Shown here: positions 9,692 to 16,300 of the stretch, piece after piece
Layout of the letters: every line of letters starts with the position of its first letter
Numbering within the stretch: the first letter of the stretch is position 1
From: Tepidisphaeraceae bacterium
GTDB lineage: Bacteria > Planctomycetota > Phycisphaerae > Tepidisphaerales > Tepidisphaeraceae
Reading direction: 5' to 3'
Assembly: GCA_036388295.1 (NCBI GenBank)
Contig: DASVSC010000054.1
Coordinates: 1-22,542 of the forward strand
Length of the DNA stretch: 22,542 nt
The notes under the pieces: model-generated
What the model was told of the DNA's origin: nothing
Databases searched by the model: none
Seen by the model: only the letters and a program-made list of their open reading frames with translations
Made by a program: the position numbers and the translations under genes

Positions 9692-10006
9692 ATGCCACGC
9701 GGCGATAAGTCGGCCTACACGGACAAGCAAAAACGCCAGGCCCAGCACATCGAAGAAAGCTACGAAAAGCGCGGCGTGCCGAAGGAAGAAGCCGAACGGC
9801 GCGCCTGGGCGACTGAAAACGCCATCAGCGGCGGCGGCAAGAAGAGTGGCAGCGGCCGGGGCAAAAAGACGAACAAGAAGCCGGCGAAGAAAGGCGGCGC
9901 GATCGGCGGATCCAAAGGCGGCAAAGCCAGCGCCGCCCGCCCCGCCGCGGCGAGGAAGAAGTCGGCCAAAAAGGCGGCCGCCACGCGGAAACGCAGCGCC
10001 AAGTAA
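9692..10006 (+). CDS. Small, highly basic protein (104 aa). It has a conserved-looking N-terminal module followed by a Lys/Ala/Gly-rich histone H1/Hc1-like tail.
   Basis: Strong RBS GGAAGGAG 7 nt upstream of the ATG, only 24 nt after the upstream gene. N-terminus: MPRGDKSAYTDKQKRQAQHIEESYEKRGVPKEEAERRAWATENA. C-terminus: GGGKKSGSGRGKKTNKKPAKKGGAIGGSKGGKASAARPAAARKKSAKKAAATRKRSAK. No stop codons in 104 codons, with clear codon-position GC bias. Confidence 0.7.
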   Translation: MPRGDKSAYTDKQKRQAQHIEESYEKRGVPKEEAERRAWATENAISGGGKKSGSGRGKKTNKKPAKKGGAIGGSKGGKASAARPAAARKKSAKKAAATRKRSAK

Positions 10007-10029: not shown

Positions 10030-10467
10030 TCAGCGCATTTCGTTTTTCCGCATCGGCATCGCGTCAATCGTCGCAAACAACTCGGCCGACGCCAGCGGTG
10101 TCGTCTCGCGCTGCTTCACGCCGCCGTCTTTGCCGATCAGCACGAGTTCGAAGCGGTCCGATGATCGGGCAAACTTGCGGCGAAGTTCGCCCGCCGCCAC
10201 CGTACGGCCGTCGATGGTCGCCTGGTCATTGATCATTTCCACGACAGTCATTTCCCGTTCCGCGTAACCGGCGGCATCGGCCTTGATGATCGCCCGCTGT
10301 GCCCGCAGAGCAGGATCGTCGCTTGTCGGTGAGAAGAGGATCAGCACGCGACGTTTCCACCGCATCGCTTCCACCGCCGCATCGGCCGACGGATTCGTGG
10401 TCGGCGTCGCTGCCACGCAGACGCCGGCCATCAGGCCGGCGGCCAAGACCCAGTGATGTGTGATCAT
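10030..10467 (-). CDS. Secreted hypothetical protein, DUF4174-like
   Basis: N-terminal signal peptide MITHHWVLAAGLMAGVCVAATP. The W-K-R-R-V-L-I-L-F block (MRWKRRVLILFSP) resembles the DUF4174 signature. About 145 aa. Convergent with the small basic protein gene. Confidence 0.6.
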   Translation of the reverse strand: MITHHWVLAAGLMAGVCVAATPTTNPSADAAVEAMRWKRRVLILFSPTSDDPALRAQRAIIKADAAGYAEREMTVVEMINDQATIDGRTVAAGELRRKFARSSDRFELVLIGKDGGVKQRETTPLASAELFATIDAMPMRKNEMR

Positions 10468-10513
10468 GCCGGATTGTACGTCGCCGGCGTGTCGCGGCGG
10501 TCTACACTTTCAC

Positions 10514-11245
10514 ATGCCGCGACGGTCTTCTGCCTCGCCCGCGCCAGAACCGGCGGCCGCTGCGGCCGCCGTGCCCGCCAGCGAATGGGACGATCGGTTC
10601 GCCACGCTCCGCGCCGCGGTCGAAGCGCTGCCACAAAAGCAGGCCGCCATGTTCATGTTGGCCGATGAAGGGTACGGCAGCGTGTTCGAGCAAGTCGTCA
10701 GCGCGATCATCAGCGTGCGCACGACCGAAGAAGTCACGTTGCCTGCGTCCCGCCGACTGCTGGACGCGGCCAAAACGCCGGCGGCGGTCGCTGACTTGGG
10801 CGTCGCCGGCATCACGCGGCTGATTTCGCCATGCACGTTCGCGGACGTCAAAGCCCGCGACATCATGGCAATCGCCGTGAGCGCACGCGACGACCATAAC
10901 GGCCGGCTGCCGTGTGACGTGGACGTGCTGGACGCCTTCCGCGGCGTCGGCCCGAAAGTAGCGAATCTGGCCATCGCCGCCAGCCACGATTGCAACGAAG
11001 CGGCCGGCATTCCGGTCGACATCCACGTGCACCGCATCGCCAACCGTTGGGGCACGATCGCGACGCGCACGCCGGAGAAAAGCCAGCCCGCGCTCGAGGC
11101 CGTGCTGCCGCGGAAGTATTGGGCCGAGATCAACCGTCTGCTGGTCCCGTTCGGCAAGTTCGTCTGCACGGGTGTGTCGCCGAAGTGTTCGATTTGCCCG
11201 GCACGCGACTGGTGCCAACGCGTAGGCGTGACGTCGCACCGGTAG
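10514..11245 (+). CDS. nth: Endonuclease III-like DNA glycosylase/AP lyase (HhH-GPD family with a [4Fe-4S] loop), paralogue 1.
   Basis: HhH motif LDAFRGVGPKVANLAIA with the catalytic-Lys position conserved. The VDIHVHRIANRWG block carries the catalytic Asp. The C-terminal Cys-x6-Cys-x2-Cys-x5-Cys loop is CTGVSPKCSICPARDWC. The start is uncertain (ATG 10514 is the preferred choice). The track start at 10460 would overlap the divergent DUF4174 gene. Confidence 0.8.
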   Translation: MPRRSSASPAPEPAAAAAAVPASEWDDRFATLRAAVEALPQKQAAMFMLADEGYGSVFEQVVSAIISVRTTEEVTLPASRRLLDAAKTPAAVADLGVAGITRLISPCTFADVKARDIMAIAVSARDDHNGRLPCDVDVLDAFRGVGPKVANLAIAASHDCNEAAGIPVDIHVHRIANRWGTIATRTPEKSQPALEAVLPRKYWAEINRLLVPFGKFVCTGVSPKCSICPARDWCQRVGVTSHR

Positions 11246-11298: not shown

Positions 11299-12075
11299 AT
11301 GGCACGGAGGCTTTCCATCCCGCCGTCGCGCGCATTGCTCGACAAGGCCGCCGAGATACACCAACGACTGTGCGTGACGTACGGCTGTCCGATCCCCTAT
11401 TTCCATTCGCTCGATCCGCTGAGTGAATTGATTTCGTCATCGCTGTCGCACCGCACGCGCAACGCCGACTCGGGCCGTGCGTTCAAGACGCTGCGGGCGA
11501 AGTTTCCGACGTGGCAGCAGGTGATGGACGCGCCGACGGCGGAAGTCGAAGTGGCGATCAGCGCCTGCACCTGGCCGGAACTGAAGGCGCCGCGCATTCA
11601 GCAGATCTTGCGACAGATCATGGCCGAGCGCGGCGAGCTGTCACTGGATTTTCTGGCCGACCTCGACGTGTCGGCCGCCCGCGCGTGGCTCGAAACGTTG
11701 CCCGGCGTCGGCAAGAAGACCAGCGCGGCGGTGCTGTCATTCAGCCTGCTGCGCAAGGCCGCCCTGCCGGTCGATTCACATCACCATCGCGTGGCCGAGC
11801 GGCTGGAACTGATTCCGGCGCGGACGAGCCTGGACCGCGCCCACGAACTGCTCGAAGCGCAACTGCCGTCCGGCGCGTCGGCGCAATTCGTGTACGACAA
11901 TCACGAAGTGCTAATGCTGCACGGCCAACGCTGTTGCTTCCATCACCGCCCCGCGTGCGGGCGTTGTCCACTGCTGGACCTCTGCCCGACCGGCCAATTC
12001 AATCTGTCCACGTCGCCGAAGCGGATCGAGCAGCCGCAGGCCCCGTCCCTGTTTCACCCGCCGGAAACGGCCTGA
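11299..12075 (+). CDS. Endonuclease III-like HhH-GPD DNA glycosylase with a [4Fe-4S] loop, paralogue 2.
   Basis: Internal ATG at 11299 (MARRLSIPPS), 53 nt after paralogue 1. HhH motif LPGVGKKTSAAVLSF. VDSHHHRVAERL carries the catalytic Asp. Cys ligands in CCFHHRPACGRCPLLDLC. The first 103 codons of track ORF 10990.. overlap nth1 in another frame and are not coding. Confidence 0.8.
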   Translation: MARRLSIPPSRALLDKAAEIHQRLCVTYGCPIPYFHSLDPLSELISSSLSHRTRNADSGRAFKTLRAKFPTWQQVMDAPTAEVEVAISACTWPELKAPRIQQILRQIMAERGELSLDFLADLDVSAARAWLETLPGVGKKTSAAVLSFSLLRKAALPVDSHHHRVAERLELIPARTSLDRAHELLEAQLPSGASAQFVYDNHEVLMLHGQRCCFHHRPACGRCPLLDLCPTGQFNLSTSPKRIEQPQAPSLFHPPETA

Positions 12076-12323
12076 ACGACAGCCAACCGATCGCCAGGCC
12101 GTAGTGGCACGTTCAGGTCGGGCAGGTGTTTCGTGGCCGTTTCGTTGTGGAACACCAGCACGTGTGGCCGGATTCGTAGGGCGTGGTCGAAGATCAACGG
12201 CCCGAGCTTGGGATGCCGCGCGAGCGCCGCGAGTGCTGCGGCCAGTGTGTCGGCTTCGATGTCGACGGTTCGCCTGCCAATGCTGTCGGCCAGCAGCGAC
12301 GGCACTGTGACGCTGATCGTCAC
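12054..12323 (-). CDS. MoaD/ThiS-family ubiquitin-like beta-grasp protein (89 aa) with a C-terminal Gly-Gly.
   Basis: It ends ...DGDRLAVVQAVSGG* (diglycine C-terminus). The block TISVTVPSLLADSIGRRTVDIEADTLAAALAAL...HVLVFHNETATKHLPDLNVPLRPGDRLAVV matches the MoaD/ThiS pattern (KV...FA.LR...G...EVEL...TV.DLL..L......VAVNGE......PL.DGDEVAI.PPVSGG). The GTG start at 12321-12323 overlaps the TGA stop of the upstream BNR-repeat gene (GTGA), indicating translational coupling. The upstream 21 codons of the track ORF (MGGAG...) are not required. Confidence 0.65.
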   Translation of the reverse strand: MTISVTVPSLLADSIGRRTVDIEADTLAAALAALARHPKLGPLIFDHALRIRPHVLVFHNETATKHLPDLNVPLRPGDRLAVVQAVSGG

Positions 12324-13387
12324 AGCACGCCGCCGATCGCCCGCACGCACAAGACGCGCGGCAGCGTCACGTCCAGCGCCGCCCACGTCTGCCCCGCGTC
12401 GGCCGACACGGCTACTTCGCCTGACGTCGTGCCGAGGTAAACGCCCCGCCCGCCGTCAGTGGCCATGGCGTCGCGCAGCACGCTGGCGTAGGAGCGGCCG
12501 TCGATCACGCTGCGGGCGGGCTGCCAACTTTGTGCGCCATCAGTGGAACGGTAGACGGCAGCCTGGCCGTCCGCAAAGTAGCGCTTCTCTTCGCTGTCCA
12601 GCGGCGCGATCACCAGCGTGCCGTCTGGCAGAATCACCATCGGGAAGCCGAAGTTGCCGGGCAAGCCGTTCTCGCACGCCTGCCAGGTGATCGCGCCGTC
12701 GGTGCTGACGAAGACGCCGCCGTGAAACTGCATATAAAGCGTGTCCGGCCACGTCGGGTGCTGCACCATTTTGTGTACGCAGAAGGCGGTCTGCGGCTCG
12801 GCGGTGCCGGTCGGGACGGCCGACAAGCCGGCGTTGGCCAGCGACCAAGTCGTGCCGCCGTCCGTCGTGCGCAACACGCCGACGGCGCTGATCGCGACCC
12901 ATAGGCGCCTCGGGTCGGAATAATCGTGGACGATCGTGTGCAGGCAAAGCCCGCCGCCCCCGGCTTGCCATTGCGGCCGCGTCGGGTGGGCGGTCAGCGC
13001 GGCGACTTCCTGCCACGTGTCGCCATCGTCGGCGGAGCGGAACAGGGCGGCCTCGTCGATACCGGCATACAGCGTGCCGCTGCCCGGGGCGGCCGACAGC
13101 TGCCAAATGCGGTTCGTCTTATACGCCGACCCGTCCGCATACGCCGGCCGGCCTTCCGGCTGCGTCCAAGTGCGGCCGCCATCGCGGCTGCGGCGCGTCA
13201 CTGGGCCGTAAGCGTAGTGCGTGGTGCCGACGAGAAAGTCCAGGTCTTCCGCACCGGACCGCATCAGCAACGCCGATACTTCCCAACCCGCCAAGTGATG
13301 TGCCGCCAGTGTAAATGGCTTGCGGTCTTCAGATTTGAAGACGAATAAACCTTTTTGCGTACCCACCGCCAGTGTGACGTTCGGCAT
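12320..13387 (-). CDS. Cytoplasmic BNR/Asp-box repeat (sialidase-like beta-propeller fold) protein, ~355 aa
   Basis: Six evenly spaced Asp-box (S-x-D-x-G-x-T-W) motifs: SRDGGRTW, SADDGDTW, TTDGGTTW, STDGAITW, STDGAQSW, SADAGQTW. No signal peptide. Start at the internal Met MPNVTLAVGTQKGLFVF, with GGAGGG 6 nt upstream. The 104 upstream codons of the track ORF are Ser/Arg-rich and non-coding. Confidence 0.8.
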   Translation of the reverse strand: MPNVTLAVGTQKGLFVFKSEDRKPFTLAAHHLAGWEVSALLMRSGAEDLDFLVGTTHYAYGPVTRRSRDGGRTWTQPEGRPAYADGSAYKTNRIWQLSAAPGSGTLYAGIDEAALFRSADDGDTWQEVAALTAHPTRPQWQAGGGGLCLHTIVHDYSDPRRLWVAISAVGVLRTTDGGTTWSLANAGLSAVPTGTAEPQTAFCVHKMVQHPTWPDTLYMQFHGGVFVSTDGAITWQACENGLPGNFGFPMVILPDGTLVIAPLDSEEKRYFADGQAAVYRSTDGAQSWQPARSVIDGRSYASVLRDAMATDGGRGVYLGTTSGEVAVSADAGQTWAALDVTLPRVLCVRAIGGVL

Positions 13388-15325: not shown

Positions 15326-16300
15326 TTATTTCTTCATCGACTCCACGCCGCCCATGATTTCCGACAATTCAGTCGTGATCTGACTCTGGCGGGCGCGGTT
15401 GTACTGCAGGCTCAGGGCGCGGGCCATTTCTTCGGCGTTGTCGGTGGCGGCCTTCATGGCGACCATGCGGGCGACGTGTTCGCTGGTGGCGGCGTCGAGG
15501 AAGGTCTGGAAGAACGCCGTCTTGATGGCCAGCGGGATCAGTTCGGCCAGCAGTTCGCCGGGCTCGGGGCTGAACTCGTAGACCGTGTCTTCGCGCTTTT
15601 CATCGACCGGCGCATTGGCCGTGCCGGCACGCACGGCGTCGAAGGCGCCGGCCTTGGCCTGGCTTTCCTTTTCGTGCATCTGCTGGGCGATTTGGTCGGT
15701 GGCGGCCTTCAAGCTCGTCAACGGCAGCAGTTGCATCACGTCGGGCTTCTGCAGGCCGGTGCTGATGAAGTTCATGTAGCCGACGTACACGCCGTCGATT
15801 CTGCCGTCCGCGAAGTCGGCCATCAGGCGATCGGCCAGCAGTTCAGTTTCGCTGAACTTGGGCGGGTCGGCGACGACCATCTTGTCGGTCAGCACGCGCT
15901 TCTGGAACGTCAGGTAGCTGACGCCCTTCTTGCCGACGGCGTAGACGTCGACGGTCTTGCCTTCGCTTTCCAGTTTCTTGATGGCCAGAACGCTGGTGCG
16001 GATGACGTTGCCGTTGTAACCGCCGGCCAAGCCGCGGTTGCTGGTCAGCAGGACGAAGGCGACGCGGTTCGTGGCGGTGTTACCGGCGGGCACGCGGAGC
16101 AACGGGTGATCAACTTCACCGGCATTGGCGGCCACGTCGGCGACGAGTTCGCGGATCTTTTGCGCGTACGGCTTCGTGCTGACGGCGCGCTTAAGGGATT
16201 TCTGGAACTTGGCCGTCGCGATCATCTGCATGGTGCGGGTGATCTTGCGGATGTTGCGGACCGCCTTGCGGCGTTTAACGATCGCACGTGCTTTGGCCAT
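15326..16300 (-). CDS. atpG: F-type ATP synthase gamma subunit
   Basis: N-terminal MAKARAIVKRRKAVRNIRKITRTMQMIATAKFQKS and C-terminal ARMVAMKAATDNAEEMARALSLQYNRARQSQITTELSEIMGG match the conserved ends of gamma subunits. RBS AGAGGA upstream. No other atp genes lie within 5 kb on either side. Confidence 0.9.
   Translation of the reverse strand: MAKARAIVKRRKAVRNIRKITRTMQMIATAKFQKSLKRAVSTKPYAQKIRELVADVAANAGEVDHPLLRVPAGNTATNRVAFVLLTSNRGLAGGYNGNVIRTSVLAIKKLESEGKTVDVYAVGKKGVSYLTFQKRVLTDKMVVADPPKFSETELLADRLMADFADGRIDGVYVGYMNFISTGLQKPDVMQLLPLTSLKAATDQIAQQMHEKESQAKAGAFDAVRAGTANAPVDEKREDTVYEFSPEPGELLAELIPLAIKTAFFQTFLDAATSEHVARMVAMKAATDNAEEMARALSLQYNRARQSQITTELSEIMGGVESMKK

Follow-up and report, generated by a model that had tools for sequence, protein, structure and literature searches.

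A coupled propeller-carrier gene pair in Tepidisphaeraceae

Examination of a 22,542-nucleotide (nt) stretch of contig DASVSC010000054.1, hereafter the window, which derives from a metagenome-assembled genome of Tepidisphaeraceae (Planctomycetota), reveals two overlapping minus-strand genes that encode a 355-amino-acid (aa) Asp-box β-propeller and an 89-aa putative β-grasp protein ending in Gly-Gly. The propeller open reading frame (ORF) runs from an ATG at 13387 to a TGA stop at 12322-12320, and the small ORF begins with a GTG at 12323-12321, terminates at 12056-12054 and has the C-terminus ...VVQAVSGG. A 110-aa reading of the latter is possible from a GTG at 12386; gene callers and homologues favor the 89-aa start. 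An earlier note made from the letters of the window had given coordinates for the pair that proved exact, and had described a GTGA stop/start overlap, which the sequence confirms. The features of the pair are:

12320 to 13387, minus strand: coding sequence of the 355-aa cytoplasmic Asp-box β-propeller, predicted to be seven-bladed, of the 3b7f/Reut_B4987 family (from the translation)
12054 to 12323, minus strand: coding sequence of the 89-aa ThiS/MoaD-family (CysO-like) putative β-grasp protein with a Gly-Gly end (translation, Pfam ThiS and CysO profile match)
12320 to 12323, minus strand: GTGA translational-coupling junction, in which the TGA stop of the propeller overlaps the GTG start of the carrier (sequence)
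12057 to 12062, minus strand: codons for Gly88-Gly89, immediately before the carrier stop (sequence)

The N-terminus of the larger protein, MPNVTLAVGTQKGLFVF, leads directly into a propeller β-strand and the protein therefore lacks a signal peptide, in line with the cytoplasmic location that had been claimed for it. Its Asp-boxes follow the pattern [ST]xDxGxxW at a spacing of 47-56 residues and were located in the translation, the first being checked against the DNA:

13166 to 13189, minus strand: Asp-box 1, SRDGGRTW, residues 67-74
13013 to 13036, minus strand: Asp-box 2, SADDGDTW, residues 118-125
12845 to 12868, minus strand: Asp-box 3, TTDGGTTW, residues 174-181
12683 to 12706, minus strand: Asp-box 4, STDGAITW, residues 228-235
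12524 to 12547, minus strand: Asp-box 5, STDGAQSW, residues 281-288
12383 to 12406, minus strand: Asp-box 6, SADAGQTW, residues 328-335

In a predicted model, the strand pattern assigned by DSSP places one Asp-box between strands C and D of each of blades 1-6, and blade 7, which has no Asp-box, is assembled from the C-terminal strand at 345-352 and three N-terminal strands at 4-31. On this model the window propeller has seven blades and six Asp-boxes; the earlier description of a six-Asp-box β-propeller thus holds for the repeats and fails for the number of blades.

Pfam searches with the propeller recovered Sortilin-Vps10 (42.5 bits, cut-off 33) and BNR (31.8 bits, cut-off 27), the latter upholding an earlier BNR assignment, and the sialidase-type BNR_2 domain scored 29.9 bits, under its cut-off of 31.4. 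Comparison with individual families places the protein outside the GH33 exo-α-sialidases (seven blades against six, together with the BNR_2 score), the GH74 xyloglucanases (the 355-aa protein is one propeller rather than a tandem pair, and aligns to one half of GH74 chains of ~730 aa with a template modeling score, normalized to the target, of ~0.3), the Ycf48/HCF136 family (PF14870, 26.5 against 27; NF010237, 28.4 against 326) and the F510_1955 family glycosylhydrolases (NCBIfam NF045728, 65 bits against 175). Its membership in the group of seven-bladed Asp-box propellers that includes PDB 3b7f (Reut_B4987 of Ralstonia eutropha JMP134, deposited as a 'putative glycosyl hydrolase with BNR repeats') is indicated by full-length homology and the same fold. 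The crystallized protein represents a different subfamily of this family, with five Asp-boxes against six, replacements at C148 and C203 and an inverted gene order; it offers a fold and no mechanism, its function being listed as unknown in the only paper that discusses it. Ycf48/HCF136, GH74, GH33 and the Vps10 domain of sortilin share Asp-box repeats and a propeller architecture with the window protein. They match under their cut-offs or on the repeats only, differ in blade number or domain organization, are mostly extracytoplasmic, and none has a known ThiS partner. Ycf48, whose seven-bladed propeller was solved in complex with a D1 peptide (as given in PDB titles), provides a peptide-binding precedent for this fold class. 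PGAP names homologues of the two window proteins 'exo-alpha-sialidase' and 'MoaD/ThiS family protein', respectively; the former name derives solely from the repeats and is unsupported, as is the automatic name 'sialidase family protein'. Archaeal plasmid matches at 24-28% identity were set aside as generic BNR proteins.

The small protein matches Pfam ThiS (PF02597) at 34.5 bits against a cut-off of 22.5, and so, taken one by one, do 18 of 25 partners from other species exceed the family threshold or otherwise match it. A profile of these 25 aligned partners, which fall into three subtypes (...AVSGG, ...AMAGG and ...QALSGG), retrieved from the PDB as its top match the CysO protein of A. orientalis in complex with BexX (4n6e_B, 3e-18), followed by M. 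tuberculosis CysO in complex with CysM (3dwg_C, 2e-17), with SAMP1 (3e-11) and MoaD-related proteins (8e-11) lower down. Together, the Pfam score and the CysO match bear out the MoaD/ThiS assignment proposed in the earlier note. Among NCBIfam models SAMP1 scored best and moaD_arch second, both under their cut-offs: SAMP1 (NF041918) reached 40.7 bits against 60, archaeal MoaD (TIGR01687) 31.1 against 49.5, and MoaD proper (TIGR01682) 13.1 against 66.15, with no moaE gene adjacent. Likewise, the cysM and mec+ neighbors that define CysO are wanting, as no gene for a pyridoxal-phosphate (PLP) enzyme or JAB protein lies next to the pair in the contexts examined; the resemblance to CysO is confined to sequence. 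With these partner genes missing and the scores under the cut-offs, the small protein is strictly neither CysO, MoaD nor SAMP1. Judged by its profile matches, it belongs to the clade of proteins that are adenylated and thiocarboxylated at the Gly-Gly (GG) end. An AlphaFold2 model built from a 4-sequence alignment was poor (predicted local distance difference test score 58.3), and its top 25 Foldseek matches, led by SAMP1 and all of them SAMP1, MoaD, CysO or Urm1 proteins, were non-significant (E ≥ 0.011). A homology search by word index, started from the small protein, yielded 4 matches and added little. Across the 25 aligned partners R52 and the terminal GG are the only invariant positions, and the GG is common to all three subtypes.

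Conservation and co-inheritance of the pair

A propeller-profile scan of GTDB, with one genome per species, recovered at least 600 matching stretches, of which the best 80 loci were retained. These cover more than 10 phyla, including Chloroflexota, Verrucomicrobiota, Bacillota (Paenibacillus and Cohnella), Gemmatimonadota, Acidobacteriota, Actinomycetota, Planctomycetota, Pseudomonadota, Elusimicrobiota and Eremiobacterota. Partners were counted with a hidden Markov model built from the small proteins, giving the following positions for the ThiS-like gene with respect to the propeller gene:

Directly adjacent on the same strand, exact GG end: 64 loci
Adjacent, GG followed by 2-3 extra residues: 3 loci
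Adjacent, GG followed by 20 extra residues: 1 locus
Adjacent, truncated by the contig end: 1 locus
Adjacent, ending in ...LPALA without GG (two Nonomuraea species): 2 loci
Same strand, 240-1030 nt downstream: 6 loci
Absent: 2 loci
Arrangement not assessable: 1 locus

Thus, 77 of the 79 assessable loci have a ThiS-like gene downstream of the propeller gene and in the same orientation. The 4-nt ATGA or GTGA overlap recurs in 48 of 66 scored pairs, most of the others being separated by 1-11 nt. The question raised earlier, whether the two genes stay neighbors in related genomes, is thereby answered in favor of the pair. The pairwise-identity matrices of propeller and carrier over 66 pairs are strongly correlated (r = 0.96, a value reached by none of 2000 Mantel permutations), and both proteins have therefore been inherited, and have diverged, as a unit. 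Gene adjacency, GG end and 4-nt overlap all persist from phylum to phylum, and the pairing is more than chance. The earlier note had allowed that the small ORF might be a frame artefact; because its protein is conserved across phyla with an invariant GG, it is not.

Five of the six non-adjacent loci belong to Pyrinomonadaceae. In one of these (L065, 7956-10324) a secreted tandem YciI-like gene separates the propeller and ThiS genes, and a gap of similar size (872-1030 nt) is present in four more (L034, L036, L055 and L066). The intervening gene had been considered as a JAMM candidate and was rejected upon recognition of its secreted, tandem YciI-like product. Four of the five Pyrinomonadaceae ThiS proteins carry 2-4 residues past the GG (ND, LNS, ASR and GIDD); over all 77 partners such extensions number eight, the others being SA, CY, RGL and one of 20 aa. 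By analogy, the short ones resemble those of trimmed carrier precursors, which implies that a free GG end would be needed.

The order of the genes is inverted, with ThiS immediately upstream of the propeller, in annotated records of Ralstonia solanacearum, Burkholderia sp., Mitsuaria sp. and P. aeruginosa, where the partners are 89 aa long and end in ...QALSGG. The propellers in these records belong to a 30%-identical proteobacterial subfamily that includes 3b7f. YciI-family genes flank the P. aeruginosa pair. The propeller family as a whole comprises 4019 cluster representatives at E ≤ 1e-30, an upper bound that includes large multi-propeller proteins.

Genes that commonly accompany ThiS/MoaD-type carriers, namely those for E1/ThiF, JAMM, rhodanese, MoaE, ThiG and CysM, are absent from all nine Pfam-annotated contexts, and neither an E1 nor a rhodanese gene lies in the window. 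Two all-against-all ORF clusterings found no recurrent neighbor family in the 80 loci; the largest clusters are generic ABC ATPases and short-chain dehydrogenases, each in at most 11 of the 80. No family in the PADLOC-DB defense-system models matches propeller or carrier at E ≤ 0.1. Molybdenum cofactor (Moco) genes are unlinked to the pair, except at locus L099, which is described below with the fusions.

These data also bear on the notion that the pairing is incidental, the propeller being an exo-α-sialidase or other glycoside hydrolase and the small gene an ordinary MoaD for Moco synthesis. Such an account agrees with the two PGAP names and with the Asp-box repeats that the propeller has in common with GH33 and GH74 enzymes. 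It is at odds with the sub-threshold BNR_2 and MoaD scores, with the seven blades as opposed to the six of sialidases, with the single propeller as opposed to the GH74 tandem pair, with the missing signal peptide, with the want of moaE or other Moco genes next to the pair, and with a pairing that 77 of 79 loci retain and that is found in both gene orders; we accordingly give it next to no credence.

Invariant residues and a possible carrier-partner mechanism

A comparison of the propellers from the 80 loci showed that fourteen positions are invariant in all of them: W95, H134, W140, C148, H150, T151, C203, H205, Q220, H222, F246, F248, R305 and T320. A further residue, K12, is kept in 79 of the 80. 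A core of K12, W95, W140, H150, H205, Q220, H222, F246, F248 and R305 also persists in the proteobacterial pairs, in the fusions and in the kinase-linked form described below. Several of these residues are concentrated in three motifs, whose strand positions are those of the predicted model:

12935 to 12961, minus strand: GGGGLCLHT, residues 143-151, opening the innermost strand of blade 3, with C148, H150 and T151 invariant in 80/80 loci (DSSP on the model)
12770 to 12781, minus strand: CVHK, residues 203-206, opening the innermost strand of blade 4, with C203 and H205 invariant in 80/80 loci
12722 to 12730, minus strand: QFH, residues 220-222, closing strand B of blade 4 and extending into its B-C loop, with Q220 and H222 kept in 80/80 loci and in all subfamilies

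In the strand assignment of the model the invariant residues either begin innermost strands or fall within B-C loops, positions that in a canonical propeller surround the central channel on the top face. This is the face that holds ligands in propeller enzymes and in peptide-binding propellers alike. The two cysteines vary outside the 80 loci: in Proteobacteria C148 is replaced by G and C203 by D with H150 and H205 retained, and in the kinase lineage C148 is replaced by A or F. The three universal histidines, with Cys, Asp or Gly alternating alongside them, suggest a metal or acid-base site, and the lysine, arginine and aromatic residues of the putative pocket could provide a hold for a carboxylate or thiocarboxylate tail.

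In light of these observations, we tentatively propose that the pair constitutes a carrier/partner-enzyme module like MoaD-MoaE, ThiS-ThiG and CysO-CysM, for which an E1 encoded elsewhere would supply the thiocarboxylate. The Gly-Gly end of the carrier would be adenylated and then thiocarboxylated by a MoeB/MoeZ/ThiF-type E1 acting in trans. Translational coupling would lead to production of propeller and carrier at ~1:1, and the carrier would then dock on the top face of the propeller with its flexible ...A-x-S/A-G-G tail entering the central pocket. The pocket would be lined by K12, W95, W140, H150, H205, Q220, H222, F246, F248 and R305, along with C148 and C203 outside Proteobacteria. Within it the activated C-terminus would be used, most likely for sulfur delivery to a small-molecule, possibly sugar-like, acceptor or to a metal-bound one. 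This chemistry is a guess, as no acceptor or pathway genes are conserved nearby.

The closest precedents are the CysO systems, namely CysO-CysM in cysteine synthesis by M. tuberculosis and CysO-BexX in 2-thiosugar synthesis by A. orientalis. In these a carrier of the same size (~90 aa), with the same ...A-x-x-G-G end, delivers its thiocarboxylate tail into the partner enzyme. They differ from the window pair in the fold of the partner, CysM being a PLP enzyme and BexX a ThiG-like TIM barrel as against a predicted seven-bladed Asp-box propeller, and CysO-CysM differs further in that no Mec+/JAMM or cysM gene is adjacent here. In M. tuberculosis moeZR, which encodes the enzyme that activates CysO, lies away from cysO. 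MoeZR is reported to have a dual role in Moco and cysteine biosynthesis (PMC3227635), and the absence of a neighboring E1 from the window pair agrees with a single E1 serving several carriers in the manner described there. MoaD-MoaE likewise combines a gene for a small GG-ended β-grasp carrier with a neighboring, often overlapping, partner gene; the propeller, however, bears no similarity to MoaE, and the window carrier scores only 13.1 against the moaD cut-off of 66.

Fusions, alternative roles and wider significance

In-frame fusions that join ThiS, its GG, a linker and the propeller were detected in two lineages. The first is represented by P0150 and P0276, which differ at many positions and share the junction PAVSGG|ASDVRKGS. 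The second is represented by P0180, with the junction PAISGG|AVAEPVPEEAPAE and a gene situated on a 1.49-Mb contig. All three place the carrier first, the same domain order as in MoaX of M. tuberculosis and DrMoaD-MoaE of D. radiodurans. Cleavage of MoaX is described as required for activity, and DrMoaD-MoaE as cleaved by the DRJAMM protease (PMC4326299, PMC8832034). The fused P0180 gene (L099, 6001-7362) lies directly downstream, on the same strand, of genes of the xanthine-dehydrogenase/CO-dehydrogenase family (Fer2, MoCoBD and FAD_binding_5), a single case that hints at a link with Moco sulfuration. A 441-aa protein from Tepidisphaeraceae named 'MoaD/ThiS family protein' (P0010) was rejected as a natural fusion: it consists of propeller residues 1 to ~283, an out-of-frame arginine-rich stretch in place of the last blades, and then an in-frame ThiS protein, the structure of a frameshift chimera.

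The internal GG of the genuine fusions could also be read to mean that the C-terminus is never activated, with the small protein serving as a non-covalent accessory subunit, structural or regulatory, or as a chaperone that keeps its GG to fit a narrow pocket. Consistent with such a role, the two Nonomuraea variants lack the GG with both genes intact, genes for an activating enzyme are not linked to the pair, little of the carrier surface beyond R52 and the tail is conserved, and some propellers have the pocket without an adjacent ThiS gene. β-Grasp families that have lost the activation chemistry, such as TmoB, RnfH and YukD, have also lost the GG end. Unlike in these, it is invariant here in 25 of 25 aligned partners and forms the exact end in 64 of 80 loci; moreover, the post-GG extensions of eight partners imply trimming that exposes it, and the characterized MoaD-MoaE fusions with the same domain order are cleaved after the MoaD part. 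A purely non-covalent role for the carrier strikes us as quite improbable.

A different kind of fusion links the propeller to signaling. In P0133/P0277 (L100, 1050-3453) the propeller is joined to a Hanks-type Ser/Thr kinase within a protein of 704 aa with C148 replaced by A, and a 93-aa ThiS gene with a GG end starts 8 nt after the fusion gene. In the window, an FHA-GAF-HATPase_c gene on the plus strand (13320/13452-15239) is divergent from the propeller gene, with ~64 nt between the starts or an overlap depending on the start chosen, and in the ORF clustering FHA-GAF genes adjoin the pair in 3 other loci. These neighbors and the kinase-propeller fusion together hint at a link to phospho-signaling.

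As SAMP1, TtuB and Urm1 illustrate, the functions of sulfur carrier and protein modifier can be combined in a single ThiS/MoaD-type protein. The pair might, by extension, be a ubiquitin-like recognition or conjugation module, with the carrier as a modifier of this type or a small signaling protein and the propeller as its receptor, target or adaptor; the propeller would then read the state of the carrier C-terminus (free, thiocarboxylated or conjugated) and in some lineages pass the signal to a kinase. Besides the kinase fusion with its downstream ThiS gene and the FHA-GAF neighbors, this agrees with SAMP1 being the best NCBIfam match of the window carrier (40.7, under the cut-off of 60) and first in the low-confidence fold search, with the binding of peptide tails by seven-bladed propellers of this fold class such as Ycf48 with its D1 peptide, and with the near-invariant K12, which could serve as an acceptor lysine. 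Set against these are several observations: no context shows E2, E3, JAB or E1 genes alongside the pair, and specifically no UbaA-type E1 or JAMM gene such as those of the SAMP1, TtuB and Urm1 systems lies nearby; the PADLOC defense models, ubiquitin-like systems among them, yielded no match; and most propellers stand alone without an output domain. In addition, the family profile is far nearer to CysO, a pure sulfur carrier, than to SAMP1 (3e-18 against 3e-11), invariance at the level seen in the pocket is more often a mark of catalysis than of binding, and kinase fusions are rare, numbering 1 or 2 in the 150 best cluster representatives. On balance we consider a ubiquitin-like role unlikely, though it is the main rival to the carrier/partner-enzyme module.

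Returning to the carrier/partner-enzyme module with thiocarboxylate chemistry, several of the observations weigh against it. The GG is internal in the ThiS-propeller fusions, where cleavage is only assumed, and the adjacent ThiS-like proteins of two Nonomuraea species (L029 and L057, 9081-9392) end in ...VYVLPALA without a GG, beside intact propellers that retain the full invariant pocket. The pocket is likewise complete in N. aridisoli (L012), which has no adjacent ThiS-like gene, as well as in L041 and in Streptomyces and Rhodobacter plasmid copies that are similarly unaccompanied. In none of the loci examined does an E1, rhodanese or JAMM gene show linkage to the pair, and no pathway or acceptor-substrate genes are conserved around it in the 80 loci. 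C148 and C203 are not universally catalytic, because they are G and D in the proteobacterial pairs. The placement of the invariant set at a central top-face pocket is inferred from canonical propeller topology rather than from measured distances. Finally, the kinase-propeller fusion with its downstream ThiS gene fits a role in sensing or recognition at least as well.

The remaining surroundings of the pair are heterogeneous. In the window, tandem HhH-GPD (endonuclease III/DNA glycosylase) paralogues occupy 10460-11245 and ~11300-12075 on the plus strand, the second converging on the carrier gene with a 22-nt overlap at its 3' end (12054-12075); DNA-repair genes, such as those for uracil-DNA glycosylase and AlkZ-like proteins, also flank the pair in some unrelated genomes. 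A lone ATP synthase γ-subunit-like gene (PF00231, 324 aa; 15326-16300, minus strand) is flanked by a GDPD gene and the FHA-GAF kinase-like gene, with no other atp genes nearby, and its synteny is retained in a 70%-identical relative (L098). On the plus strand, 9692-10006 codes for a very basic 104-aa protein with a Lys/Gly/Ala-rich tail (MPRGDKSAYTDKQKRQAQHIEESYEKRG...) and no Pfam hit on record. In scattered genomes the pair is found near thiol, redox or detoxification genes (thioredoxin-family, VOC, DJ-1/PfpI, GST, ahpCF and DinB-like), and the ThiS-less propeller copy on a plasmid of Rhodobacter sp. CZR27 (L088, 3601-7128) is divergent from the ergothioneine genes egtB-egtD.

The suggestion in the earlier note that a propeller is not a described partner for such carriers agrees with the literature: two neighborhood surveys of prokaryotic ubiquitin-like systems and a review of the β-grasp fold make no mention of a propeller, BNR or sialidase partner of ThiS/MoaD (PMC1779556, PMC1949818, PMC2948915). 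Full-text searches for the propeller-ThiS combination, and for the guessed P. aeruginosa tags PA1355/PA1356, found nothing relevant; a BNR protein described in a fitness-browser preprint was rejected as belonging to a different family. The carrier family is thus a known one, and the propeller class of partner is not. Taken together, these results make it fairly probable that the 3b7f-type Asp-box propellers are a previously unrecognized class of ThiS/MoaD partner, acting either as a sulfur-transfer enzyme or as a ubiquitin-like receptor in a widespread and ancient pathway. As an enzyme the propeller may catalyze a thiocarboxylate-dependent reaction on a sugar-like or cofactor substrate, perhaps metal-assisted via H150, H205 and H222; as a receptor it may represent a bacterial reader of a ubiquitin-like protein that is wired directly to a Ser/Thr kinase in some lineages.

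ThiS/MoaD-type carriers are related to ubiquitin and are its counterparts in prokaryotes. Each of the known carrier partners, such as ThiG, MoaE, CysM, MetY, BexX and the tRNA thiolases, has marked a distinct pathway of sulfur insertion, and the pair would contribute a partner of completely different fold. Its distribution is wide, with more than 600 species-level genomes, thousands of sequence clusters and at least ten phyla. If this is true, a pathway extending from Planctomycetota to P. aeruginosa has been overlooked under the labels 'exo-alpha-sialidase' and 'MoaD/ThiS family protein'. The occurrence of the pair in tractable organisms (P. aeruginosa, Burkholderia, Ralstonia and Cupriavidus) makes the proposal directly testable, and the 3b7f crystal structure, without a function since 2007, gains from the pairing a concrete hypothesis that can be put to the test. 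The kinase-fused variant, for its part, hints that a ubiquitin-like protein may be connected to phospho-signaling in bacteria.

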